Shown here in pieces: positions 2,123 through 43,662 of a stretch of DNA of 43,662 nucleotides. Position 1 is the first letter of the stretch; each line of letters opens with the position of its first letter. The stretch is from Chrysochromulina tobinii (lineage: Eukaryota). The position numbers and the translations under genes were made by a program. The notes below the pieces were generated by a model that saw nothing but the letters and a program-made list of their open reading frames with translations, did not search any database and was not told the origin of the DNA. The stretch is from NCBI GenBank assembly GCA_001275005.1, contig JWZX01002781.1, positions 1 through 43,662 of the forward strand, read 5' to 3'.

Positions 2123-3085
2123 TCAGTTCAGCAAGATGAGGCCAGCGACCGCCTGTGCCGTGCCCTGCTGCGCCGTGCCCGGCTGCGCCGTGTTGGGCGG
2201 CGTGTTGAGCGTCATAGAGCACGTGAGCCGATGAGACGGCCAATCCATCGCCTGGCAAAAGCGGGAGCAGTAGCGCGCGCGGCAGTGGCCAGGCATCATG
2301 CCCTGACAGCGCGGCAGTGCGGGCGGCCCCATGATGCCATTCGCCCGTGCGCGCGCGCGCACGCCCCACCGTCCGCAGCTCGGCGATTTGCAAATGCTCG
2401 CGGTTGCCGTATTAGGCGCGTGCAAGTCGCGTGCGCGCCGCAAGCAGTCCTGCATGATCGCGTACTCGCTGGAGACCCGAAAGTCCGTGGGCTCGCGGTC
2501 GCGCGTGCGCGGCCGGTGCTTGCCGAAGCGGGCCGGGTTGTGTCCGAGGGACGCGGCCAAATCCAGAAGCGACTCGCCGCTGAACAGGTCGCCTCGAGTG
2601 AAGAGGCCGCCACCGCCGAGAATCGCCGAGAGACGGCCGTCGTCGGAGGAGGGCGAGGCCGGCTCGGGCAAGCGGCGCGTGAGCAGCCAGCACTCGAAGG
2701 CGGCGTCCGCGCGCAGCGACGCGGGCGCGCTTTGCTGGCTCGCAAGGGTGCGTAGGAGCATGCGCCCCTGTTCATTGTCGGTGACATCGGCTGTCGGGTG
2801 GTAGGAGAGGGCGACGCCGAGGCGGTAGTTTGCAGCGGGATTGCCGGCCTCCACAAGGCGCTCGAGGAGGTGGCGGCGCTCGAGAGGAAAGGCTGCGTCC
2901 TCGGATGAGCCCAGAGGCAACCACGTCCACAGCACGGGCAAGCGGCAGAGCTCGGCAAATGCACGGCACGTCGTGGCGACCTCGAAGAACTCACCAGCGT
3001 CGAGATGGACGAGGACGGACTCGAGGAGGTCGGGGCCGAGGTCGGTCAAGCTGAGGCCGCTCTGGGAGCCCCGAATGGTGGTCAT
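2123..3085 (-). CDS. F-box protein with Sel1-like helical repeats and a C-terminal MYND-type zinc finger; alternative start at 3109
   Basis: F-box-like LTDLGPDLLESVLVHLDAGEFFEVATTCRAFAELC; Sel1-like AGNPAANYRLG; MYND-like CKSPSC...RCQG...CRARYCSRFCQAMDWPSHRLTC, the architecture of plant F-box/MYND proteins. Confidence 0.8.
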   Translation of the reverse strand: MTTIRGSQSGLSLTDLGPDLLESVLVHLDAGEFFEVATTCRAFAELCRLPVLWTWLPLGSSEDAAFPLERRHLLERLVEAGNPAANYRLGVALSYHPTADVTDNEQGRMLLRTLASQQSAPASLRADAAFECWLLTRRLPEPASPSSDDGRLSAILGGGGLFTRGDLFSGESLLDLAASLGHNPARFGKHRPRTRDREPTDFRVSSEYAIMQDCLRRARDLHAPNTATASICKSPSCGRWGVRARARANGIMGPPALPRCQGMMPGHCRARYCSRFCQAMDWPSHRLTCSMTLNTPPNTAQPGTAQQGTAQAVAGLILLN

Positions 3086-3231
3086 GCGACGACGCCCACG
3101 AGTCTGCATTAGATTAGATACGATCGCTGAACTTGCATCGGGCGGACGCTCATGAAACGCAGAAGAGACGTGAACTGTTTTTAAAACGCCCAAAATAAAA
3201 CGCTCGAAAATCGGAAAACCACAAGCGCGCC

Positions 3232-3586
3232 TCAACACTCCCCCAGCATCATCGCCGCCACAATCTGCTTGGCGGCCGGATCCGTGAGCGTGGCCACCAG
3301 CTGCCCGAACTGCGCCTCGCCCAGCGCCGTCCCGAGCGTGCGCACCCAATGCGCCACGCGTACGGGTACGTTGATCGACCTCAGGTCCTCATCGTCCTCG
3401 TCGTCCTCGTCGTCCTCCTCGTCCTCCTCGTCCTCGCCGTCGTCCTCGTCCTCCTCGCCGCCTCCGCCGAGCGCGCCGGTGTCGGCGTAGGCTCGCGCCG
3501 CGGTGGTGGCGGCAAACTCCTCTTGGCTCATGAAGGGCGAAGGACGTCGCGCGCCTTGCTGAGCGCTCGCCTCGACGCGATCTTCA

Positions 3587-3621
<35 letters not shown>

Positions 3622-4706
3622 ATCCTCGTCCTCGTCCTCGTCACCTGCGTCGCCTTGTCCCCGGACGAGCTGCCCGTCCGCTCGGTACGAGTCCGAGCCC
3701 GCATGCGCCAGCACAGCCCGGGCCGCCGAAGCGGCGAGGGCGAAGACACGAACGAGCAACGGCACTACCGGCCTCGCGCCGTGTTGAGCAGAGGATGGTG
3801 CCTGGCGCTCGCGCCGTGTTGAGCTGCGCAGCTGGCGGGGTGCGTGCGGATCTGCGGGCGGTGCGGCGCTGGGCACTGGCAGCTGGCACACCGCCGGGAA
3901 CGCAGGCGAGGCGAGCTCGAGCAGCGCAGCAAGGAGAGCCTTCGCCTCATATGGATGGAGCACCTGATGAGGGAGGCTATCGGAGGCACTCAGTGGCACT
4001 CGGAGGCACTCGGTGGCACGTAGAGGCACTCCGCGGCACTCAGAGGCACTCCGAGGAAATCGGTTCGCGTACATCCGGCGCCGTCTCAATCCAAGCACTG
4101 AGCACGAGCGACAACGCGCCGTCATGGGCACCCTCATGGGCGCCCTCGTGGGCGCCGAGCCGTTGGAGCGCATCGACGAGCATTCCACAGCCGAGAGGGG
4201 GCGGCGCGAGCGCTATCCTGGCGAGGACGACTAGAATGGCATGGCGCAGGCCCATGCGCGATGCCGACCGCAGCCATCGCACGAGCGCCCACAACAGCGC
4301 GTCGGCACGCTCGGCGAAGGCGCTCGGGGCGTGACGAACGAGGACGCCGAGTAACGGCACGCCACCGCTCGCCACCGCCGCCTCGGTGAGCTCGCCTCGG
4401 AGATTGCGGAGCGCCGTGTCGAGCCAGTGCATGCGGAGCGTCGTGCCGTCAGCCAGCGCGCCGTGTCGTGCAAAGTAGCCGAGGCACAAGCAGCCCTCGC
4501 GCAATACGGATGGCTGCGTCGCGTGGCTCACGACGGTTAACAGTGCGGGCAGCACTTCGGTGCATGCCGCCCGAGGCAACGCGTGAGTTCGGGGCCAGCG
4601 GCGGAGCAGCACGGTGTGTAGCAGCTCGAGAGCGGGCATGAGGGCTTCGTGGGAACTTGCATTCACATCGTCCCCCACCGTCCCCATATCATGCGACCCA
4701 TCCTCA

Positions 4707-4774
<68 letters not shown>

Positions 4775-7552
4775 TCCGGCCGCAGCGTGCATCCCTCCGG
4801 CAGCACTCACCGCCCCGCCGGCTGCCGCGTCCGCTGCGGCCGCCGCCTGGTCGAGTTGCATCTGGAGCTGCGGCACGTGAAGGAGCCATCAGTCGCACTC
4901 AGTCGCAATCAGTCGCACTCAGTCGCACTCAGTCGCACTCACCTGGAGCACGTGGAGGAGCACGGGAAGCAGGCGCTCCACCAGCCCAGGCATGGCCTCG
5001 AGCTGCGAGGCCATCGGCTTGATCGCATCCACCACCGCGTCACCCACAAGGGGGGATGTGCCCGAGACGGCGCCGCGCCCGAGCGAGTTGGACCAGAGCT
5101 GTAACAGCTGCGGCGTGAGCCACGGCTCCGCGGCGGCCGCCGCGTGAGCGTCGCGGCGCAGCAGACTCCCCACAGTGCGCAGGGCGCATAGCGTCGCCTC
5201 TTCGCCCTCTCGCAGCGCGAGGAGCGCCGTCGTGGGCACCAAACAGTCCAGCACGAGCGCCGTAGTGGTCGCCGCGCCCCCTGGCAGACGTTCACACCCC
5301 TCTGGAAGCTGTTCACACACCGTCTGGAGCGCGCCTGCATGGACCGCAATCAGGCGCACTCAGACGCACTCGGAGGCACCCGTCGAACGCAATCAGAGGT
5401 CATCAGAGGCCATCAGAGGTCCTCAGAGGCGATCAGTCGCAATCAGAGCCCATCAGCGCACCGCACGCGACCAGGCGCAGCTGAGTGCCCCACTGTGGCT
5501 CTAGTGCCGCGCGGATTGCTCCCACCAACTTAGCCAACGCCTCTCGCGGCAGCGAAGCCGCATAGCGCGCCGCCGCGCACAGGGTTCGTGCCCGGAGCAG
5601 CGGAGGCGTGTCGGGGTTCGTCAGATCGTGTCCCCACAGCTCCTCGAACGCATGTGCGGCGCTGAAGACGGCGGCGCGCCCGTTGGAGAGAGCCTTTTTG
5701 TTCGCCTGCGCCAAGTGGGACGCACCAAGCTCGAGTGCGAGGCAGGCAGCCTCTCGCAGCCGCCACCAGTGCGGCGCACCCGCTGTTCGGTTCGCATGCG
5801 CTTGGCTCAAGCGTGCGCCGATGGCGTGCAGGAGCGCCGTCGCGGCGCTCGCCGGGGCGGCGTCGAGCAGCTGCTCGAGCGCTTGGCGCACCTGCCATTA
5901 GGCGCAATCAGGCGTAATCAGGCGCAATCAGGCGTAATCAGGCGCAATCAGGCGCATGCAGACTCATACAGCAGCATTCATCTAGGGCGCTCGATGTCAT
6001 CAAAGGTCATCAGAGGGTCATCGTAGAATTCATCAGAGGTCTTCACGGCGCAATCCACACCAATCAGGGGAGCTGCTCACGGCCACGCGAGTGGAGACGG
6101 CGAATGACTCCGAGTCCTCATGTTGAAGGTACGCGTCCACATCTTCGCTCCACTCCTCCTCTTGTGCAGGCGTGATCGGGAGCAGCCCAATGCACCTGCA
6201 TGCAAACGCATGCCAACGCATCCTCAGACGCAATCCAGACGCAATCAGATGGGCTCAAGACGCCCTCAGACGCCCTCAGACGCCTTCAGAAGCACTCAGA
6301 CGCCCTCACAAGCACTCAGAAGCACGCAGAAGCACTCAGAAGCACTCAGATGCACATGTGGAAGAGGTCGGGCAATGCCGGCGTGAGTAGCCTGTGGAAC
6401 GTCGATGAATCCGCAAGCGCACTGAACACGTCGAGTAGCTCCGCCGCCAGAGCATCCGCGCCCTCCGTCTCTCCGTCCGAATCGTACCGCGACGGCGCGT
6501 TCCAAAGGCCCATCGCGCCGCCAGGCTCCGTCGCCTCGAGCGTGCGCTCATGCAGCCGGACGGCTCGCAGCAGCTGTGCGCCGAGCGGAGGCAATATGGC
6601 TTCCTTATTAGGCAGGAGCGCACGTGGGAGCATCTGGATGAAGAGTCGCAACAGGCGAACGAGCGCCACCTGCAGCGCGCAGCTCTCACCGTCCGCACCC
6701 TCTGCGCCCGCCACAGCGCCCGCCACGCCCGCCACGCCCGCGACGCCCGCCACGCCCGCCGGCGCGTCTGCACAGCCCGCGAGCGCCTCGAGGATGAGTG
6801 ACGCCCACACAGCCAACGGCCCCTTTTGGAGCTTGCGCAGGACCGGGTCGTCGTCGGCGCAGAGCATGGTGAGCCGTTCGAGCAGCTTATGCACCACCTG
6901 ATGAGGGGGGGGGCAGTCCGGTAGGCGCTCACGGGGGCGTTCCAAACACGCCATCAGCGCCCCTCAGTTGCGAGCACACCCGCACGGTACGCGCTCGGTC
7001 CTTGGGCCTTGCCGTTGGCGAGGCGACTACTGGGGCGAGCAGCGGCGAAAGCACATCGAGCGTCTCGATCAGCTGAGCCTGATCAAGCTCGCCGGCGCAG
7101 AGCTCGAGGCAGCGCAGGACGCCTGCGGCTGCCTCCGACGAGCCCTCGCCGCCCGCGCTCGCCGCGCTCTGGAGCCGTTGGATGAGCTCTTGCACCATCC
7201 CAGGCCACTCGTCGGGAAAGTCGTGCTGCGCAATGGCGGCCACGACCATGGAGACGGCGGTGCGGATCTTGCCGGATCGGTCGGCGAGGCACGTGGGCAG
7301 CGCGCCTCGGATCGCCGCCTTCTCTGCGTCAGGTACGATGCCTCGCATCCACTGGGAGCGCACAAGCCGCTTCAGGATCAGGCCGGATAGCTGGCGCACC
7401 GGCAAGGGCTGAGCCGAATCGACAAGGATACTCGCGAGGCAGAGCGCAAATCCGGGTGTGCCCTGCAGCGCGTCGAGCCCAGCCTCGGCCGCACGCGGAT
7501 CGAGCTGCATCTGGCCGAGGTGGTGCAACACCACCGCGTGAAGGTCAGACAT
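3232..7552 (-). CDS. IPO9: Importin-9-like karyopherin, 7 exons: 7552-6980, 6897-6356, 6195-6081, 5891-5462, 5334-4943, 4867-4073, 3963-3232 (about 1192 aa)
   Basis: IBN_N-like VRQLSGLILKRLVRSQW; AIAQHDFPDEWPGMV; EEEWSEDVDAYLQHED; WWRLREAACLAL; acidic C-terminal loop; all six GT-AG junctions keep frame (3579 nt). Confidence 0.85.
3964..4072 (-). other. Importin-9 intron 6 (109 nt, phase 0) with GAGTGCC-core decamers
   Basis: GAT|GTACGC ... CCCTCATCAG|GTG joins ETAPD to VLHPYEAK. Confidence 0.8.
4868..4942 (-). other. Importin-9 intron 5 (75 nt, phase 0), GAGTGCGACT x5; alternative in-frame acceptor at 4862
   Basis: CAG|GTGAGT ... GCCGCAG|CTC; its removal eliminates an in-frame stop. Confidence 0.8.
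5335..5461 (-). other. Importin-9 intron 4 (127 nt, phase 1) with degenerate decamer repeats
   Basis: G|GTGCGC ... CATGCAG|GC gives VACGALQTVC. Confidence 0.75.
5892..6080 (-). other. Importin-9 intron 3 (189 nt, phase 0) containing a (TGATT(G/A)CGCC)n decamer array
   Basis: GCC|GTGAGC ... CTAATGGCAG|GTG; CTAAT branch-like motif. Confidence 0.8.
6196..6355 (-). other. Importin-9 intron 2 (160 nt, phase 2), built of about 10-nt TCTGAGTGCT / TCTGAGGGCG units
   Basis: AT|GTGCAT ... GCATGCAG|GTGCATT restores LFHMCIGLL. Confidence 0.8.
6898..6979 (-). other. Importin-9 intron 1 (82 nt, phase 0)
   Basis: CGG|GTGTGC ... CCCCCTCATCAG|GTG joins ARTVR to VVHKLL. Confidence 0.75.
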
Positions 7553-10795: not shown

Positions 10796-11551
10796 TCAAG
10801 GGACAGGCATTCGTAGAGCTCGTCGAGCACGCTCGGCCTTGAGGCTTTCGAGACGACTCGTCGAGCTCCTCGATAGCACAATGGCGCCACGCATCTGGAA
10901 TGCCCGTGGCGTGCCTGTGTCGCGAGCCGCGGCGCGCTGGGTGCTCCACACCCACGAAGAGCTCGTCGTGAGTTCGGGTGCACGCGTGCCAGGCGAGGCG
11001 CTCAGGGGCTCTAGCAGCTTCACCGAGGAAGACGCGCCACCACCCGCGCCCCTTGGCAGCAGCCTCCGCGACTCGCCTTGTGGCGCCGCCCGGGCCGCGT
11101 CGGCCTGGGAAGGCGTGAGCACCGGAGCATCGAGCGCGGGTAGTGAGCGAGCGGCTCGGCTGGCCTTGAGTGCTTCGACTTGGCGGTACGCCTCGATCCA
11201 CGCCAGGTCATCTAACTCTCCCTCTCTCCTCTCACCCTCAATCTTGTTCTGACTCATACGCCGTCCCGGCGGATTGCGCGCGGCGTACTCCTTCCGGATG
11301 CTGGCAATTCTGGTCACTTGACGATAGACGGCTTCCTCCTCGAGCCTGTGCCGAATAGGCAAACGCTGCTGCTCTTCGAGCAGGTCCCACCGCGGCGGCG
11401 GTACCACCGTGTGCAGCCCCTTGGCGCGGGCCCGCTTGACGCGCTCGCGTGCAGCCGCTTGGCGCAGCCGGTGATCCAAGTCTTTTCCGGGGGAAGTTTC
11501 GGCACTGGCGGGCGCTTCCTCCTCTGTCTCCTCTGCTGTCGCGACCGCCAT
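10796..11551 (-). CDS. Hypothetical charged/helical protein (about 251 aa from MAVATAEE)
   Basis: Protein-like charged helical composition after ATG 11551; divergent from the cyclin gene; 3' end uncertain. Confidence 0.5.
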   Translation of the reverse strand: MAVATAEETEEEAPASAETSPGKDLDHRLRQAAARERVKRARAKGLHTVVPPPRWDLLEEQQRLPIRHRLEEEAVYRQVTRIASIRKEYAARNPPGRRMSQNKIEGERREGELDDLAWIEAYRQVEALKASRAARSLPALDAPVLTPSQADAARAAPQGESRRLLPRGAGGGASSSVKLLEPLSASPGTRAPELTTSSSWVWSTQRAAARDTGTPRAFQMRGAIVLSRSSTSRLESLKAERARRALRMPVP

Positions 11552-11786
11552 GAGCGTTTCTAGAAAGGCACAACATGTGGAAAAGGCTTTCGCATGTTTG
11601 CTGCACTTGCATGCGTAACTTCGGCCTTGCCCATACAGGTACACGGCTCGCATGTAGTTTGCTTGTGGGTAACTTTCCGTGCAGCATGCATCGCTTTTGC
11701 AGCGCGAATCTTGGTATTCACGAAGTTCTTGCAGTGGCTGCGCGCGCGCGCGCGCGCTGCCATACATCAGCCGCGCCGCCGAGTAC

Positions 11787-13046
11787 ATGCCTCAAGCTAT
11801 GCGCGCTATCGACGAGGACATCGCCCGCGCGCACTATCTGCGCGACCAGGCCACACTCAGGGCCCTGGAGGGCATTTACGGCACAGATGATGTTGCCACA
11901 TTCGAGCGTCGTGAGTATCTGCTTCGCATCATGCGACAGGATTGCGAGGATGCCATATGGAAGAGGCTCACGCGCGTTGTTCGTACCGAGGATCAAGCCA
12001 AGAGCGTCGAGAAGGGCGTGCAGGACGTGAAGAGACTGGCTGATGAAAGCGCCCGCTCCGGCCTCGTTCTGTTCGACAAATTCCTTGCCCGTCGTAAATG
12101 CTCGATGTGCCCTGAGCACGAGGAGGAATATGCCGAGCTTTGCGCGAATGTGATCATCAAGTTTGAGACCCGGGATCTAGAGCATCGGTTTCTCACTCTT
12201 CGTCAACGAGTCCGCGAATACGAGATCATCCAAACCTGCGGCTGGGACATTGTGATCCGCACGCCAGACAGTGAGATCGAGCGGCTGCTTGCTGAGTCCC
12301 ACCTGATCCTGACCGAGCCCCTGCACGCTCGCATCTGGTCGAGCAGCCTCGCGTTTGCTAGAGAAGCGGTGCTCAACTTCTACATCTACCTCTCGCACAC
12401 GCGCACGACGATCGCAGTCGCTTCGATCTTGGCGGCGCTCCACTCACTCGCCGCCCGGCACCCCAATCTAGTCGACATCTGTCAGTCGCTGCAGTACGCG
12501 CGAGCCGAGGTCTCGAGGCGCCCCAACGGGCGTGCACCTGGCTCTGTGCACGCTCTGCCTTCTGTGCTGACCGGCCGCGTGCCTCTCCCTGCCCTGCACA
12601 GAATGGAGGAGACGGAAGGCGGCGCTGGGTCGTACGATCCCAGCGTGCTGCATGAACTCTTCCCTAAGTTAGGCGACGTGCCTCCGGGCGAGATGCTGTG
12701 CCACGCGTCGATCACCAACGCGGCCACCATCCTCTCGTCCAACTCGTTCGAGGGCTGGGTACGCAGCGACACTTCGCCGCCAGCCTCACACACGGCCCCA
12801 AGGATGACGTCGCCGCCGCCCAAGAGGCTCAAAACCGAGGCGAAGGCGGCGGCCGAGGCCAGTCCGGCGTTGCTGCAGTTCTACGTCGAGGACGAGGACG
12901 AGGACGAGACGGGGTGGCTAGACGAGAGCGACGACGAGGTCGTGCCGTCAAGCCTGCCGTCATGGCTGCCGTCTCCGTGCACGCCCGAAAACGCCGACGA
13001 GGCCATGTACCACGAGGCCATGCGCTACGCCAACGGAAACGAGTGA
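11787..13046 (+). CDS. Divergent cyclin-fold protein
   Basis: Cyclin-box pattern GLVLFDKFL...LCANVIIKFE...REYEIIQTCGWDIVIRTP, then second-box-like TIAVASILAAL; PEST/acidic tail and basic PPKRLK. Confidence 0.7.
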   Translation: MPQAMRAIDEDIARAHYLRDQATLRALEGIYGTDDVATFERREYLLRIMRQDCEDAIWKRLTRVVRTEDQAKSVEKGVQDVKRLADESARSGLVLFDKFLARRKCSMCPEHEEEYAELCANVIIKFETRDLEHRFLTLRQRVREYEIIQTCGWDIVIRTPDSEIERLLAESHLILTEPLHARIWSSSLAFAREAVLNFYIYLSHTRTTIAVASILAALHSLAARHPNLVDICQSLQYARAEVSRRPNGRAPGSVHALPSVLTGRVPLPALHRMEETEGGAGSYDPSVLHELFPKLGDVPPGEMLCHASITNAATILSSNSFEGWVRSDTSPPASHTAPRMTSPPPKRLKTEAKAAAEASPALLQFYVEDEDEDETGWLDESDDEVVPSSLPSWLPSPCTPENADEAMYHEAMRYANGNE

Positions 13047-36247: not shown

Positions 36248-36447
36248 GCTGTCAAGACGAGAGCAGTCCACGCAAGGTCCTGTGCCACCGCGCGAGTCCA
36301 CGCGTCTTCGGAAGAAATCGGCGCTAATACTTATTTCAATCCGGAAAATTCGTCGCGCATCGTTCAACAGTGCTGCTCCAAGTTAAGAAACTTTTTGTCT
36401 TATTTCGAGAATAATTATATTTTGAGTTCGCAAGCACGCGCGGACTC

Positions 36448-37278
36448 ATGCCAAAGCTCCATGGCCAGCCACGCGTGTTCACGCGGCGCGGCATAGCGCG
36501 GCCGCCATACAATCCAGCGTTGGAAAAGTATTTTCACCAACGGAGGAACCTCTTCAGCAAGTACGATTGCGGATGTGCGCTGGACGCGGAAGGATGGTAC
36601 TCCGCGACCCCTGAGGCAGCTGCGGCGATCACAGCACAAATCATGGAGACAGATGGGGCGTCGCGCGGCAGCATCTTCGTCGATGCGTTCGTTGGTACTG
36701 GCAGCAACGCAATCCAGCAGGCGCTTCACGACCCCGCCGGCGTTGTAATCGCCATCGACATAGATCCCGCCAAGATTGCGATGGCGCGCCACAATGCGGC
36801 CATCTATGGAGTGGCTGCTCGGATTCACTTTGTCATCGGTGACTTCGCGTCTTTAGCCCCACGCTTGCGCGCGCATGCCGTCTTCTTATCGCCTCCTTGG
36901 GGAGGGCCCGAGTACGGCGCTTCGGACACTGGCGGCTTCCGCATCGCTTCGATTCGCTGCGGCAGTGCGGACGACGCGGACGGTTACCGGCTGTTTGAGC
37001 TCGCTGCGACGATTGCGCCGACCGTGGCATATTATCTTCCCGTCAGCACGGCAGAGGAGGATATCCTCGCGCTGACAGCGCGCCATGCGTCCCAGCGCTG
37101 CGAGTGCGTCCACTTAGCCTGGGGCGGGGAAAAGAAGCGGCGGCCGCGTGCTGTCCTGGCGTGCTTCCACGGACCACGACTACCGAGTCACCTCGCGCTC
37201 TCGCCGCCCGGTCTGCTACACTCGACAGCGAATTGCGATGCCCGATCGGAACCATCACAGCGTACTTGGGCTCGTTAG
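36448..37278 (+). CDS. TGS1: Trimethylguanosine synthase (RNA cap hypermethylase)
   Basis: KYFHQRRNLFSKYD...LDAEGWYSATPE, VDAFVGTGSNAIQ, IAIDIDPAKI.MARHNAAIYGV, VFLSPPWGGPEY. Confidence 0.93.
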   Translation: MPKLHGQPRVFTRRGIARPPYNPALEKYFHQRRNLFSKYDCGCALDAEGWYSATPEAAAAITAQIMETDGASRGSIFVDAFVGTGSNAIQQALHDPAGVVIAIDIDPAKIAMARHNAAIYGVAARIHFVIGDFASLAPRLRAHAVFLSPPWGGPEYGASDTGGFRIASIRCGSADDADGYRLFELAATIAPTVAYYLPVSTAEEDILALTARHASQRCECVHLAWGGEKKRRPRAVLACFHGPRLPSHLALSPPGLLHSTANCDARSEPSQRTWAR

Positions 37279-37834: not shown

Positions 37835-39223
37835 TCAATTCAGTATGAGTCTGACGTCCGCGAGCTCCTTGAGAATCGTAGGAGCCAAGAGGGTCCCGCT
37901 CACCAGGATGCACACTACCAGCATGTACCAGACCGCGGCCCAGCCGCCCCAGATCTGCAGCGGGCCGATCGCCATCAGCCCAAACGCGGAGATGAGCGAG
38001 CCCGTACCATTGATGATGCCGACGACCGTGCCGAGCGAGCGCGTGCTACCACCGATCGACGGGTGCTCAGAGAGGTCCGCGGCAACGGCGGAGGTGATCA
38101 TGTTGTTGGGCCCGCCTACGAGAACGCCGAGCAGAGTCAGGAGGGCGACGAGTAGCCACGTGGCCATCGCATCCGAGTACACGGCGAAGGAGCCCAGCAG
38201 CGGCAAGAGCAGCACAAAGGCGGCGCCTATGACGGAGGCGCGGCGTCCGCCGAAGAGATCCGAGAGCCAGCCAACAAAGACTCCTCCAAACATCAATCCA
38301 ACGGAGTACAGCGACGAAATGACGTTGGCCGTCTGGGTGTCGAAACGAGATGTCAATAAGAAGGGCAGCCAAAAGAACATGGCGTAATTGACGTACTTGA
38401 GAAACCCGTAGACGAGTGCGTAGCGTGCGACACCGGGGATGGCCAGCGCCTGCATGAAGCCCACGGTGCTGCCCTCGCCGCCGTCAGCACCGCCGTCAGC
38501 GCCCTTCTCAGCGCCCTTCTCGGCGCCGCTGCTCGCTGTTTCGTCATCATCCAGCTTGAGGCCAATCTGGGCGGGCGAGCCCGCGACCATCAGGTAGTTG
38601 AGCACAGCCCACAGTGCGCTCAAAAGCATGGGGATGAGTAGCGCCACTTGCCACGAGAAGCCAGCGCTGACGATCGCGGCAGTCGAGAGGGCCGCCACAA
38701 TGTCGCCTATATTCCCATTCATGGTCCAGAAGCCGAACAGCAAGCCTCGGCCTTTCTTCGAGAACCACACGCCCATGAGCGCCATGTTGACGGGCAGCCC
38801 ACACGACTGGAAGAGGCCGTGAATCAGTTGGATGGAGACAAAGAGGAATGATCCGAGGCTATAGGACGAGTGGATGATGTCGATGTTCACCAAGTACAGC
38901 AGCGTTCCCAAGCAAAGTGTGGAGCCGACCAAGCTGATGCCGAGGACGACGTTCTGCGGGAAGATATCTGCAATGCGGCCCGAGATGAAGGTGCCGATAG
39001 CGTATGCGAACATGAAGGCGGTATCCATCTGCGAGAGCACGACCTTGTCTACACCAGCTAGGACGAGTTCAGTCTTGACATTGGTGTAGACCTTACGTGC
39101 AAAGTGCATGATCAAATAGTTGGCGAACGTGATGAAGAAGATGAAGGCCTGCCACTTAACCAGCCTAGAGACGGCACCTGGCCCTGGCAGATCAGGCAGC
39201 TGGCCCATGTATTGCAGAAGCAT
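37835..39223 (-). CDS. MFS sugar-phosphate / glycerol-3-phosphate transporter, SLC37/GlpT-like
   Basis: About 12 TM segments; HFARKVYTNVK, WFSKKGRGLLFGFW, FFWLP, ITSAVAADL, GIINGTGS. Confidence 0.88.
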   Translation of the reverse strand: MLLQYMGQLPDLPGPGAVSRLVKWQAFIFFITFANYLIMHFARKVYTNVKTELVLAGVDKVVLSQMDTAFMFAYAIGTFISGRIADIFPQNVVLGISLVGSTLCLGTLLYLVNIDIIHSSYSLGSFLFVSIQLIHGLFQSCGLPVNMALMGVWFSKKGRGLLFGFWTMNGNIGDIVAALSTAAIVSAGFSWQVALLIPMLLSALWAVLNYLMVAGSPAQIGLKLDDDETASSGAEKGAEKGADGGADGGEGSTVGFMQALAIPGVARYALVYGFLKYVNYAMFFWLPFLLTSRFDTQTANVISSLYSVGLMFGGVFVGWLSDLFGGRRASVIGAAFVLLLPLLGSFAVYSDAMATWLLVALLTLLGVLVGGPNNMITSAVAADLSEHPSIGGSTRSLGTVVGIINGTGSLISAFGLMAIGPLQIWGGWAAVWYMLVVCILVSGTLLAPTILKELADVRLILN

Positions 39224-39716
39224 GGTGAACGTAAGCTTGCGCTCGGCTTCGCGAGCTCGTGGGCCGCGTGCCGCGCCGCAGCTTGCGAGTTTTTTCGGAT
39301 CGCCACGGAAGCTTTTCGCCCAAGAGAACGCCCACAAAAATGGAGTCGATCCTCTCCCCAAATCTGGTTCGATCCCGCTCCGACCAAATTGTCTCCGCAG
39401 CTCCCGCCTTCTGGGCCAGCGTTTATCTTGTCAGTGGCGTAACGAAGAGCGGCGTTTCAAGAGCGGCGCACAAACTACATTTCCTGAGACCGGACGATGA
39501 ATCATGATTGTGCTGGAGGCACGGACGGAACACGGAAGCATGGATGGAAGTGCACAAGCTAGAGCTTGCTTGACGGAAGAGAGAAGACGCACGCGTGCCA
39601 GCGAGAAAGGCGGCGGAGCAGTACAACGTAATAAACAAGTGTGCGGCGCAGTCACGAGTCGAGAATGCCGATGACATGCTCTCGGTGCTTGCTGGTGCGC
39701 AGGATCGGTTTCAGGC

Positions 39717-41183
39717 TCAGTCAACGGATACCCATCGGCCCGAGGGGCTCAGCGATCCCCTCGTTTCTGCATCCGCTCGAGGACCGTTGTCGAGGAGCCG
39801 CTCGCCGTTCACGGCTTCGACCTGGAGGAGAGGCGGCCGAACGCGCCGCCGACAGCTCACGCAGCTGCTGGTCAAGATCTGTAGCACGATCGTCAAGATG
39901 ACCAGGTACCCGCAGATGACGCACGCTCGCTGGAAGCCGATCAACTCTACCAGGCCGCCGCCCGCAAGCGGCCCCGTGGCTTCACCTGCAGTGAACGCCA
40001 ACATCGAGAGCGCCGCGATAGAGTCGGAGCTCTGATCCACAGAGAGGCCGCCCAGCTCCGCCGTGTGCACCATGATCGCGTTCACTGGGGTGAAGGCGAG
40101 CGCGCCGCCAATGCCCATCATGCAGAGAGAGCCGAGGGCGAGGCCGATGGCGCCTGCGCGAGTACCTTGCGCCAAGAAGGGCACCGGCGAGAGCGGGTAG
40201 ATTTTTCCATGAGTATTGTTCCCTCCGATCTCGGACCATGGCTCCGGCGCCATCGTGATGAAACAGGCGGAGAGGATCGAAAGCCCGATGCTCAGAGCAG
40301 TCAGCGTGCCGAGACGCCTTGCCACCGGCCCAGCGCATGCAGAGCAGAGCGCGTAGGTGAAGAGCGAGGATGAGTACATGAGGCCTACCTGCAACTCGTC
40401 GAGCGCGTAGGGCGGGTTCGCGAGGAATGGCTCGATGGTCGGATCCAGGAAACCGACTGTGAACATGAGGATGTAGCAGACGAAGAGGCTCGAGAGGATG
40501 ACCGGCATTCGCAGCAGCCGTCCCATGGCGCCGCCGCTGCCCTCTTCCACAACCTCCACGCTGAGTGGGATGATTGTCATGTAGAGTGCAAGCAGCCCGA
40601 GCGTGCTCCCCGAGCAGAAAAAGGGCGCCTCGTAACCGATAGCCTCGTCGAGGCCGCCGCCGATTAACGGGCCAATCATGATGCCCACACCGCGCGCGGC
40701 CTCGGACCACCCGATGGCGTCGCCGACAAGTTCGGAAGGCACGCTGCGCATCAACAGTCCGACGGCAGCCACCTCCGAGAGCCCCGCAGCCAGACCCTGC
40801 ACAGCGCGAAGCGAAGCGCACGCGACCACAAAGGCGGTCGTCGTGGTCGCCAGGTCGGTGAAGGCGAATGAAAATGCTGTGGCCGCTTGCAGAAAGCACG
40901 CGGCCCTCAGCACGCCAGCTCCGCCAAAGCGCTGGCACAAGAAAGGTGCGACCGGCGTCACCAACAGCGCCACAGCCTGATGGAGGCCAAAGAGCATGCC
41001 GGTGACTGTCGGAGTGCAGCCGTGACGCTCGGCCGCCTCCGGGAAGAATGGAACGAGCATCGAAAAGTTGAGGTCGCTGATCGCGCACACGGCGCAGGAG
41101 ATCACGATCGGCACCACTTTCACTTTCTGCTCCGCCGAATGTGCGTCCCGTATGAGGGGGGTGGACACACCGACAGCCGGCAT
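39717..41183 (-). CDS. MFS transporter, SLC18B1-like
   Basis: About 12 TM segments; FSMLVPFFPEAA, LRAVQGLAAG, GIMIGPLIGGGL...GYEAPFF, GFLDPTIEPFL, GPLAGGGLV. Confidence 0.85.
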   Translation of the reverse strand: MPAVGVSTPLIRDAHSAEQKVKVVPIVISCAVCAISDLNFSMLVPFFPEAAERHGCTPTVTGMLFGLHQAVALLVTPVAPFLCQRFGGAGVLRAACFLQAATAFSFAFTDLATTTTAFVVACASLRAVQGLAAGLSEVAAVGLLMRSVPSELVGDAIGWSEAARGVGIMIGPLIGGGLDEAIGYEAPFFCSGSTLGLLALYMTIIPLSVEVVEEGSGGAMGRLLRMPVILSSLFVCYILMFTVGFLDPTIEPFLANPPYALDELQVGLMYSSSLFTYALCSACAGPVARRLGTLTALSIGLSILSACFITMAPEPWSEIGGNNTHGKIYPLSPVPFLAQGTRAGAIGLALGSLCMMGIGGALAFTPVNAIMVHTAELGGLSVDQSSDSIAALSMLAFTAGEATGPLAGGGLVELIGFQRACVICGYLVILTIVLQILTSSCVSCRRRVRPPLLQVEAVNGERLLDNGPRADAETRGSLSPSGRWVSVD

Positions 41184-41486
41184 CGGCAACGCCGGCTCGT
41201 GCTAGCCCGTGCGCCTCGTTTGCCAGAGGCGCGCCTGCGCGATCTCGAAGCCGCTACGACGTGATTTTTGCTCCAAAACGCAATTTCCAGGGCGGGCAGC
41301 CGAGTGGCGCGTGTTAACGTTCACACTGGCGGCTCAAAAGATGCTCTGCATGCATTCAGTATTCTGCTCTGAGGATCCTTTGTGATCAAGCGGGGCATAA
41401 GTACGTCCTGTTCTCCTCTTTACACTCTCCAGGTAGCCTGCACAGGTAGCCCACTCCCCAAACCGAAACCGCTCGCGCCCCGGGGC

Positions 41487-43662
41487 TCACTCAAACTGGA
41501 CGCGCGCGTGCAGATGCCGCGCCGCGGCGGCGTCGCCCGGGCGCGCGCCAACGTACCGATGCGCGTACACCATGCGCGGGTGCTGCCGGCGCACGGCGAC
41601 AGCCTGCCCCCCGCCCGCGCCCGTGAGCCGGCGCGGCAGCCAGCGAAGCTCGGGCATCGTATGGTTGGCGGCCGTCGGCTCCCAGAGCGGCGACGCGTCC
41701 CGGTAGGCTCCAAAGCGCGGGTGGACTGTCTGGCCGTAAAAGTCGGAGCCGCGCCGCTTGAGCCACTCGCCCACCGCGTCGCTCAGCCTCGCGCCCACGC
41801 CGAAGCCCTGGAACTCGGGCAGCACGACTGTGCGGTGCGCGCGCTGTGGCCGATCGGTCGCCTCGCTCGTCGGCTTGCCTGAGTGAGGGATGGTCGCCAA
41901 TCAAAGAGGCAATCAATGGTCATCAGCGACGCTCGCAACGGCTTGCCTGAGTGAGGGATGGTCGCCACGAACCCCGCGGGCACGTACACGCTCGCCTCGT
42001 CCTCCGCGTCGTGGCGAGCGTCCTCCGCGTCGCGAGCCACCGCCTCGGCGTCGTGGTGAGCGTCCTCCGCGTCCGCCGCCGCGGTTCCCGCCCGTGTCAC
42101 CGCCGCCTCCGCCCTCCCGCCGAGCGCCACGCGCGCCTCGAGCAGGCAGGTCGATGCGACCGTTGAGAGCTGCGCCGTCTTGTAGTGGTAGCTGTGGAAG
42201 CGCTGCCACTCGGCGGGTGCGCATGGGCGTAGCCGCAGGGCGAGCTGTGGAAAGGGGAGGCGCACGCTGCCGCCGTCGACGAGGCCGGTGGCGCCGGTGC
42301 TGGCGCCGGCGGCGGAGGGTTTGGCGGCGAGAGGGTCGCTGATGACCTTTGATTGCCTCTCGATTGCCTCTTGATTGCCTTTGTTGTCGTCGGAGGGATT
42401 GGCGGCGAGTGACGCTCGCGCGGCCGCCAGCGCTAGCCAACCACGCAAGCCCATCGCCTCGTGAGCCATCGCCTCGTGAGCCGTCGCCTCGTGAGCCGTC
42501 GCCTCGTCCATCGCCTCGTCCATCGCCTCGTGAGCCGTCGCGCCCGCTGCCGCGCCCGCTGCCGCCTTCTCCACGTCCCTCGTCGCCTCCGCCTCGGTTT
42601 CGGCGCCCTCCGCCTCAGCGCCCTCCGCCCGTGTAGCTGCCGTCGGCTGGAGCCAGAAGCACGTGGCCGAGCCCGCCTCAAAGATCCAATCGGGCTCGAG
42701 GGCACCGCGCGCCACGTGCTCAATGTGGCAGCCCGCGAGCACCACCCCGGCGCATCGCAGCAGCGACGGCCGCGCAGCCGCCCCACCAGCGCCCACGACG
42801 GCGCCGCCGGAGCCGCCGGGCTGAGCTTGAGCGGTCGAGGCCCGCAGCGCGCCGCTGAGCGCGCGGCTGATGCGCAGCGTCGTGTCGCCATCCCACGCGG
42901 AGCCAAACTCGTCAAAGAGGGCGAGCCGCGCGCCTGATCGCTCGTCGTCCCCCGCCTCGTCCCCGTCCCCTTTGGCCGGCTCGGCCGCGCCGATCTCCAA
43001 GGCCAGCAGCGCCTGGGCACGCTCGCCGCTCGAGCACGCGCCGTACCGCCACGCGAGCGCCGACGGCAGCGGCGCGGCCACCGCACGCAGGCAGCGCGCC
43101 GCTTGCTCGGAGCTGCCAAAGGCGTCGCTCAGTCGGCGAGCGCGCCGCCAGGCGGCGCTCAAGACGGCGCTCCCGTCGAGGGCGGCTCGACCGAATTGGG
43201 CAGCGAGCAGTGCGGACTTGGCCGCGCCCGACGGGCCGGTCAGCACACCAAGGCGGAAGGGGCCGAGCGCGTCGCGGCTCGGGAAGGGCGGCAGCCGGCG
43301 CGCGCAGGTGCCGTCGCTCGGCAGGTCGAAGAAGGTCTCGACGATGCGCGTCGCCTCGGTCGCCTCGACGTGCGCCGCGAGCACGCGCCCGCCCCGCGGC
43401 GGCGGCGCGCACGCGTCGTGCTGAGCGGGAGGCGTGACGTCGTGGCAGAGGGCATCAGAGACCATCAAAGGCACTCAGGGGTACTACTCAGAAGTCATCA
43501 GTGCTCATCACCTGGAAGGGAGGCGCGTCGTCGTAGCAGCGCTGGGAGAGCACCCGTAGGCCACACCGGCGGAGGCTCGCGAGGAAGAGCTCGCCGCCGC
43601 GGGGGAGGTGCGATGGGGGGAGGTGCGATGGGGGGAGGTGCGATGGCGGGAGGTGCGATGGG
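41487..43662 (-). CDS. ABC-type ATPase fused to a GNAT acetyltransferase, 5' end outside the window; exons >43662-43512, 43420-41947, 41878-41487
   Basis: Walker A-like LTGPSGAAKS, signature-like SSGE, Walker B LFDEFGS, H-loop LAGCH...LEPDWIF; WQRFHSYHY; acetyl-CoA motif RTVVLPEFQGFGVG...TVHP. Confidence 0.8.
41879..41946 (-). other. GC-AG intron (68 nt, phase 1) bounded by a perfect 29-bp direct repeat
   Basis: CAG|GCAAGC ... CCCTCACTCAG|GCAAGC; removal joins the 41783-43474 and 41487-41900 ORFs. Confidence 0.8.
43421..43511 (-). other. GT-AG intron (91 nt, phase 0) in the ABC-GNAT gene
   Basis: CAG|GTGATGAGCACTGAT ... CCCGCTCAG|CAC; upstream frame stays open to the window edge. Confidence 0.7.
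43602..43662 (-). repeat. 15-bp tandem repeat (PSHLP x4), probably coding
   Basis: GGGAGGTGCGATGG(G/C) units on the plus strand. Confidence 0.8.

Follow-up and report, generated by a model that had tools for sequence, protein, structure and literature searches.

An intron-containing gene of Chrysochromulina tobinii for a predicted two-ABC-ATPase GNAT protein of a phage-related family, a candidate ATP-gated acyltransferase

The DNA analysed here, referred to below as the window, comprises all 43,662 nucleotides (nt) of contig JWZX01002781.1 (positions 1 to 43,662) of the Chrysochromulina tobinii assembly GCA_001275005.1. The minus strand of the window between positions 41487 and 43662 carries the 3' part of a gene for a soluble ATP-binding cassette (ABC) ATPase fused to a GNAT acyltransferase domain, as a preliminary description of this sequence had proposed; the 5' end of the gene lies beyond the window. 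Joining the three exons gives 671 codons with no internal stops, and both exon junctions are consistent with the proteins of orthologs. The 3' end of exon 1 (43512..43662) encodes a Pro-rich linker and a conserved GGELF segment situated between two nucleotide-binding domains (NBD1 and NBD2). The possibility that this exon 1 tail is the end of a methyltransferase was ruled out by the orthologs. Intron 1 (43421..43511) is a 91-nt GT-AG intron in phase 0, across which the orthologs are continuous. Exon 2 (41947..43420) encodes NBD2 (42650..43420), a low-complexity Ala/Glu linker (42251..42649) whose length varies among near-identical strains, and the N-terminal half of the GNAT domain (41947..42250), consisting of a W..F..YHY motif (42208-42182) and an Ala/Asp-rich loop. 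Intron 2 (41879..41946) is a 68-nt GC-AG unit with a 29-nt flanking duplication. Exon 3 (41487..41878) completes the GNAT domain with an HRTVV motif containing an invariant Arg (41837-41823), the QGxGxG acyl-CoA loop (41813-41793), TVHP (41729-41718) and the stop codon. NBD2 contains a Walker A motif, GPSGAAKS, with a Gly-to-Ala change (43237-43214), an ABC signature (43036-43022), a Walker B motif of the DE type, with its Glu (42919-42890), and an H-loop (42739-42725). All of the motifs quoted in the preliminary description, including the altered Walker A, were located at these positions. Pfam recognized the gene weakly (AAA_16, expect value (E) 0.025; Acetyltransf_7, E 0.003).

The part of the gene upstream of the window was reconstructed from near-identical contigs. 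Three contigs (L006, L007 and L009) matched the window gene at 99-100%, and in L007 exon 1 forms an open frame of 454 codons that encodes a tandem C2H2 zinc finger pair and the first ABC domain; the portion lying outside the window, from the ATG through the finger pair and NBD1, occupies L007 8602-9963. The preliminary description had expected further N-terminal sequence, and its upstream domains are now identified; the ATPase that the window contains is NBD2, the second of the pair. The resulting 1075-amino-acid (aa) model has the order C2H2 finger pair, NBD1, linker, NBD2, linker, GNAT. The same order was found in four full-length orthologs of 866-934 aa (P0010, P0011, P0013 and P0014), which have no break at either intron. 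A search for longer named orthologs returned 6 metagenomic proteins only. AlphaFold2 modelling of ortholog P0010 from 100 sequences predicted a single compact assembly (predicted local distance difference test score (pLDDT) 84.8, predicted template-modelling score 0.85) that contains only the fingers, the NBDs and the GNAT domain, with pLDDT <50 at the linker matching window positions 42251-42649. Its top fold matches were tandem-NBD proteins, namely DppD, ABCF1, EttA, ABCE1 and UvrA (11-18% identity; Foldseek E 6e-8 to 1e-5), with template-modelling (TM) scores by target of <=0.46. No membrane Pfam family was found on the orthologs, for which a dedicated transmembrane predictor was not run, and scores of NCBIfam transporter families were far below their cut-offs. 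When the finger pair was used in a structure search the top two rows were NUFIP1 clusters (TM 0.42-0.45, below the naming bar; feature scores <0.9). One further ortholog cluster (P0012/P0048) carries, N-terminal to the zinc fingers, a PhyH-like dioxygenase segment (E 1e-4), and its sequence stops within the GNAT domain; this may be a fusion or read-through across a gene border. Upstream of the gene in L007, a PhyH-like dioxygenase frame (2628-3347) and a MAP kinase kinase-like frame (3436-4839) were noted by eye.

The window gene belongs to the phage ABC-GNAT family. The phage family phrog_11143, which has 357 positions and is annotated as unknown function, matched three stretches in each of the four full-length orthologs (E 7e-56 to 9e-65) as well as P0009, a relative without intron 2 (E 5e-29). 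Comparison of the eukaryotic clade profile with the phage-type profile aligned 358 columns with a probability of 100% (E 1e-89). The prokaryote- or phage-type fusion envisaged at the outset was borne out by these searches, as the best match was neither a transporter NBD nor an ordinary N-acetyltransferase. A tblastn search matched 41 phage records, among them Tenacibaculum phage pT24, which is named in connection with an ABC-ATPase-coupled GNAT system (PMC7824862; this and the other papers cited by number are cited from excerpts). The same excerpt attributes to Iyer et al. (2013) the prediction that the ABC-GNAT family acylates DNA bases. The preliminary description had grouped the fusion with base-modifying enzymes related to Mom of phage Mu; this published prediction agrees with the base-modifying part of that grouping, and Mom membership was not upheld (see below). 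Proteins with a single NBD are abundant, accounting for 6461/7999 scored candidates at E 1e-20 and for at least 590 genome and at least 596 viral-contig matches among the 600 listed for each. A ParB-like gene adjoins the ABC-GNAT gene in 111 of 165 prokaryotic or viral loci, and a terminase gene in 75 of the 165. From this distribution we infer a phage or prophage source for the eukaryotic form. The prokaryotic family has already been described, and the eukaryotic protein is a doubled variant of it. A model of a single-NBD member (pLDDT 93.6) has the canonical acyl-CoA GNAT fold. The best matches in a GNAT fold search had Z 14.7-14.9 and a root-mean-square deviation of 3.6-3.7 over 139-141 aligned positions at 10-11% identity, with many near ties. 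Overall, matches to acyl-CoA GNAT folds ranged from Z 12 to 14.9 at 6-15% identity, with no close solved relative.

Several features of the phage loci were also recorded. In Burkholderia phage phiE255 and Gordonia phage BiggityBass a formyltransferase gene follows the ABC-GNAT gene (L002 5005-5619; L003 1823-2473); it carries a tRNA methyltransferase annotation and matches Pfam Formyl_trans_N. Such a neighbour was found in 0 of the 165 scanned ABC-GNAT loci. The two cases hint at a two-step acyl/formyl pathway in some phages. The pT24 gene (L001 4905-6077) is annotated as two genes, and tblastn with a full-length relative runs through it as one piece; an in-frame stop or read-through is probable. 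In several Streptococcus and Lactococcus phages the ABC-GNAT gene is likewise in two pieces.

The two NBDs of the eukaryotic protein differ in a consistent manner. The Walker B Glu is present in all 88 single NBDs and in 62 of 64 NBD2 sequences, and in 23 of 58 NBD1 sequences. In Walker A, the Gly that precedes the Lys gives way to Ala, Ser, Leu or Cys in 20/64 NBD2 sequences, 0/58 NBD1 sequences and 1/88 single NBDs. The 58 complete pairs include 19 with this replacement in NBD2, every one of which has also lost the NBD1 Glu, a pairing that relatedness rather than independent events may account for. In the protein encoded by the window gene, NBD1 has an intact Walker A and signature and a Walker B ending in D-A; NBD2 has A-K-S in Walker A, D-E in Walker B and the H-loop His. 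Judged from these alignments, the altered NBD2 Walker A is characteristic of the clade. The ATPase had at first been described as degenerate, and this points at the wrong domain, because it is NBD1, beyond the window, that has lost the Glu, and NBD2, despite its clade-wide Gly-to-Ala change, keeps its Glu. ABC ATPase sites are composite: one NBD supplies Walker A, Walker B and the H-loop, and its partner supplies the signature. Together with the motif asymmetry this implies one predicted ATP-binding site and one predicted hydrolysing site, as in asymmetric transporters and ABCE1. Because MCM helicases with Ala or Ser at the same P-loop position do hydrolyse ATP, the change in NBD2 need not inactivate the site.

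The two-NBD form represents an established family in protists rather than an isolated transfer, as every labelled two-NBD cluster is eukaryotic and the labels cover several groups. A search of the full library returned 1626 proteins at E 0.001. The order ABC-ABC-GNAT was present in 67 of 154 proteins examined, a set made up of 147 of the listed matches, six earlier proteins and the window model. Taxon or source labels were carried by 9 of 20 looked-up family clusters, and all 9 are eukaryotic; a 178-aa protein with a fungal label (P0342, in the P0088 cluster) was set aside. Labelled two-NBD clusters include Durusdinium trenchii (four accessions, on 1-Mb contigs), Acanthoeca spectabilis (a complete transcript open reading frame (ORF)), Nonionella stella and Elphidium margaritaceum, whose foraminiferan transcriptomes may include prey sequences, and MMETSP/EukProt transcripts. 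Several protist groups thus transcribe members of this family. In an Atlas cluster (74 members, 731 aa), 88% are eukaryotic, Chlorophyta being the commonest. Truly tandem proteins numbered 0 among 166 prokaryotic or viral proteins, a count biased by the choice of this set with single-NBD queries; three odd rows that had appeared tandem proved to be short split ORFs. In a scan with the clade alignment for a viral vector of the twin form only 4 viral loci were recovered, all with matches of the single-NBD type over ~1 kb. The preliminary description had proposed horizontal acquisition by this alga; that proposal was not supported, given the spread of the two-NBD form over several protist groups.

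Phylogenetic analysis of the GNAT domain (125 columns, with two long-branch rows dropped in one of the trees) placed the window protein in an 8-row group of zinc-finger-type proteins (support 95-96), itself nested in a clade of 21-25 rows supported at 99. The tandem forms fall together with metagenomic single-NBD proteins that carry no label (support 97). A single origin of all tandem forms was not rejected (p 0.51 in the approximately unbiased test); the free trees require 5 and 8 changes. No mention of eukaryotic tandem members was found in the literature, and we put the odds of a prior description at roughly even.

How, then, might this protein work? Our tentative preference, held with less than even confidence, is that the protein, which is soluble and combines a pair of zinc fingers with two ABC ATPase domains and a GNAT domain, is an ATP-gated acyltransferase of nuclear DNA bases. 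By analogy with ABC biochemistry, duplication of the NBD would replace the homodimer presumably needed by a single-NBD phage protein. Site I, formed by the Walker A and Glu-less Walker B of NBD1 and the signature of NBD2, would be occupied by ATP most of the time and would hold the two NBDs to each other. Site II, formed by the Walker A of NBD2 with its Lys and Ser, the Walker B with its Glu, the H-loop and the intact signature of NBD1, would hydrolyse ATP. The ATP cycle would grip or deform the duplex and so offer a base amine to the GNAT domain, where the invariant His-Tyr and Arg would position the amine for transfer of an acyl group, probably acetyl, from acyl-CoA. The His, Tyr, Arg, Pro, Gln and Trp of the GNAT domain are invariant in 157/157 rows, including the window model, and since the QGxGxG loop is also intact in this alignment, acyl-CoA is favoured over Gly-tRNA as the predicted donor. 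The zinc fingers, or SAP, chromo, Tudor and AT-hook modules in relatives, may replace the ParB partner of the phage system in targeting. In phages, ParB activates a DNA-modifying dioxygenase (PMC13229309), and haptophytes have acquired other DNA-modifying genes from ParB-terminase loci (PMC4738411). Candidate biological roles are an epigenetic mark or a self/non-self mark against viruses.

The accessory domains of the relatives are all related to nucleic acids or chromatin, and are split between DNA and RNA. Three clade members (P0071, P0079 and P0082) have a SAP domain (E 3e-4 to 3e-3, below the cutoff), P0128 has a chromo domain (E 6e-12), P0143 has a Tudor domain, and AT-hook-like motifs occur in 3 of 77 tandem-type proteins. 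An OB fold and a TrmH-type SPOUT domain (TrmH E 2e-15) are fused to P0092, P0118 and P0361/P0201, proteins that are <50% identical to each other and belong to the 99%-supported clade of the window protein (3/25 rows); P0361 is a complete Acanthoeca transcript ORF. A protein with the order ABC-ABC-GNAT-OB-TrmH is a possible multi-step tRNA-modifying enzyme. Beside the OB and TrmH domains of P0092, P0118 and P0201/P0361 is a short helical segment that looks HMG-box-like by eye and has no Pfam match.

A broader scenario, which we regard as doubtful though worth stating, is that several protist supergroups domesticated a packaging-linked phage enzyme as a self-sufficient acyltransferase with twin ATPases, that it places an as yet unknown acylated base in their nuclear DNA under the guidance of chromatin-reader domains, and that one branch was redirected to tRNA.

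A number of observations weigh against a DNA-base acyltransferase. The claim of a DNA substrate rests on gene context, and no ParB-like gene or domain was present in the window, in 7 eukaryotic loci or in 77 tandem-type proteins. The OB-TrmH fusions point to RNA, as does, weakly and below the naming bar, the NUFIP1 likeness of the finger pair, and the closest solved GNATs have proteins and small molecules as substrates. According to the excerpt of PMC13219725, N6-acyl adenine is unstable, and no experimental test of any ABC-GNAT member was found in the literature. The P-loop change of NBD2 could impair site II. As to the gene itself, no splice joint was found in contigs of 8 of the 14 available RNA runs, which were low-depth assemblies. 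On the favourable side, the ratio of nonsynonymous to synonymous substitution rates (dN/dS) was <1 in 11/11 comparisons, but the values of 0.12-0.35 against near-identical loci each rest on 1-4 differences, and those against distant loci were 0.25-0.70.

The same chemistry may instead be directed at RNA, such as tRNA, rRNA or snoRNP-bound RNA, making the protein an ATP-dependent RNA acyltransferase similar to TmcA and NAT10 by convergence; we consider this a genuine possibility, albeit a fairly unlikely one. The occurrence of OB-TrmH fusions in three clade proteins, one of them the complete Acanthoeca ORF, fits this explanation, as do the NUFIP1 clusters at the head of the finger-pair search and the precedent of TmcA, in which an ATPase joined to a GNAT domain acetylates cytidine N4 (PMC13219725). 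However, the TrmH fusions are no more frequent in the clade (3/25) than the SAP fusions, the NUFIP1 rows lie below the naming bar with feature scores <0.9, there is no sequence kinship to TmcA beyond motif A, and the genes surrounding the phage members are those of DNA packaging.

Less likely still is a protein acetyltransferase regulated by ATP, in which the two ABC domains would serve as a switch and the targets would be Lys or N termini, for instance in components of chromatin or ribonucleoproteins. Among solved structures, the nearest folds are those of RimI, Naa10/Naa50, Ard1 and small-molecule GNATs, chromo and Tudor domains bind proteins, and phage GNATs that acetylate host proteins are on record (PMC7824862). 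Identity to these GNATs is only 6-15%, however, with many rows tied, and the invariant HY...R set and the linkage to ParB and terminase genes fit a nucleic-acid substrate better.

Whether the window copy is active depends in part on its introns. The 3' end of intron 1 resembles a decayed copy of the end of exon 1. The intron 2 unit is present once in the window, 4 times in L007 (11529-11800) and 11 times in L006 (about 11530-12280); the one unit seen in the window may represent a collapsed array. At the exact site, intron 2 is absent from seven listed relatives that form a sister lineage (P0008/P0009/P0033-37). Six of the seven keep intron 1 and for this reason look genomic. By sequence, intron 2 was gained recently, and 29 nt of exon sequence were duplicated with it, in agreement with the gain of introns proposed in the preliminary description. 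Within the Ala/Glu linker, a 78-nt in-frame insert between 19-nt direct repeats (42313..42409) contains the same repeat core as intron 2, and relatives have a similar 75-nt version. Because its core is in the opposite orientation to that of intron 2, the insert is probably retained as 26 codons, and it could represent an intron-generating element inserted in the antisense direction and now read as protein. Introners with 4-bp duplications have been described in a Chrysochromulina sp. (excerpt of bioRxiv 10.1101/2022.06.06.494994), compared with the 29-nt duplication at intron 2 here.

An improbable explanation is that the window copy is inactive, either because the 68-nt insertion remains unspliced and puts the catalytic Arg and the acyl-CoA loop out of frame or because both ATPase sites are dead. 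Neither the unit nor its arrays (68, 272 and 748 nt) are multiples of three, contigs from RNA libraries run unspliced into both introns, and NBD1 lacks the Glu while NBD2 lacks the P-loop Gly. On the other hand, the 68-nt unit is built like an intron, with GC-AG ends, exon 3 products that stand alone are 98-100% identical with an open frame in 9/9 listed entries, and the ATPase pattern is conserved across the clade. The RNA runs also cover intergenic DNA (the contigs of X8 and X9, for example), which makes carry-over of DNA likely.

The introns and the neighbouring genes support a eukaryotic nuclear locus, as the preliminary description had assumed. Two tandem major facilitator superfamily (MFS) transporter genes, each one long open frame, lie at 37835-41201 on the minus strand (Pfam MFS_1, E ~4e-30), and an open frame at 36415-37278 resembles an RNA cap guanine-N2 methyltransferase (Methyltransf_15, E 2e-23). 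The GC content at third codon positions is 0.86 in the ABC-GNAT gene vs 0.57-0.78 in these neighbours, in line with a GC-rich host.

That the protein is a Mom-family enzyme making 6-NcmdA from glycyl-tRNA is scarcely credible: both have a GNAT fold with an essential His-Tyr and Arg (PMC13219725) and the phiE255 ABC-GNAT gene lies downstream of tail-fibre genes, much as mom does in Mu, but the canonical QGxGxG loop is kept, the family members scanned have no Pfam Mom match, and the excerpt of PMC7824862 separates the Mom and ABC-GNAT systems.

Known eukaryotic DNA marks are methyl groups or oxidised or glycosylated bases, several of which come from phage modification loci. Should acylation of DNA bases be correct, eukaryotic DNA chemistry would gain a new class, an acyl mark placed by an enzyme driven by ATP; with RNA as the substrate, the protein would be an ATP-dependent RNA acyltransferase unrelated to NAT10. 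Because the eukaryotic form is a single chain without a ParB partner, it may be the most convenient member for testing the 2013 prediction, and the conserved split between binding and hydrolysing sites provides direct mutant controls.

Among known systems, the phage ABC-GNAT proteins of phrog_11143 share with the window protein an ABC NBD followed by the same GNAT domain, including the HY, R, P, QGxGxG, HP and W residues. The phage form has one NBD with a Walker A GK and a Walker B DE, whereas the eukaryotic protein has two NBDs and N-terminal zinc fingers, and its gene has introns and no ParB or terminase gene found nearby; function is predicted for both forms. Mu Mom (Pfam PF25680) is also a GNAT superfamily protein of phage origin with an important His-Tyr and Arg and a proposed role in base acylation. 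The Pfam Mom model gave 0 matches in the family members scanned (E 2e-75 for Mu Mom itself), and the family profile aligned to Mu Mom with a probability of 0.25%. Mom has no ATPase, uses Gly-tRNA as donor and carries a helix-turn-helix-like insertion (PMC13219725), in contrast to the ABC ATPase and canonical acyl-CoA loop of the present protein.

TmcA and NAT10 resemble the window protein in joining an ATPase to an acetyl-CoA GNAT domain that acts on a nucleobase amine. Their ATPase is helicase-like, whereas that of the window protein is ABC-type, and only motif A aligned between the family profile and Escherichia coli TmcA (probability 0.1%). Neither Mom nor TmcA/NAT10 stood among the rows listed by the fold searches, an absence that carries no weight. 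ABCE1, ABCF/EttA and UvrA likewise have two NBDs in a soluble chain without membrane domains. The window protein differs from them in its much shorter helical subdomain, its GNAT fusion and a separate origin by duplication of a phage-type NBD, and no family-level match to ABC-F was found (ABC-F model E 0.07, in one ortholog only), nor any PDB sequence match better than E 0.15. The folds of RimI, Naa10/Naa50 and Ard1 match the GNAT domain at Z about 13-14 and 6-15% identity. No acyl-transferring, phage-derived DNA-modifying enzyme of eukaryotes turned up in the literature. The clade 6 N6A methyltransferases of haptophytes and the TET/JBP enzymes differ from the window protein in their chemistry, but they too come from ParB-terminase or phage modification loci and have had eukaryotic accessory domains added (PMC4738411, PMC13229309).

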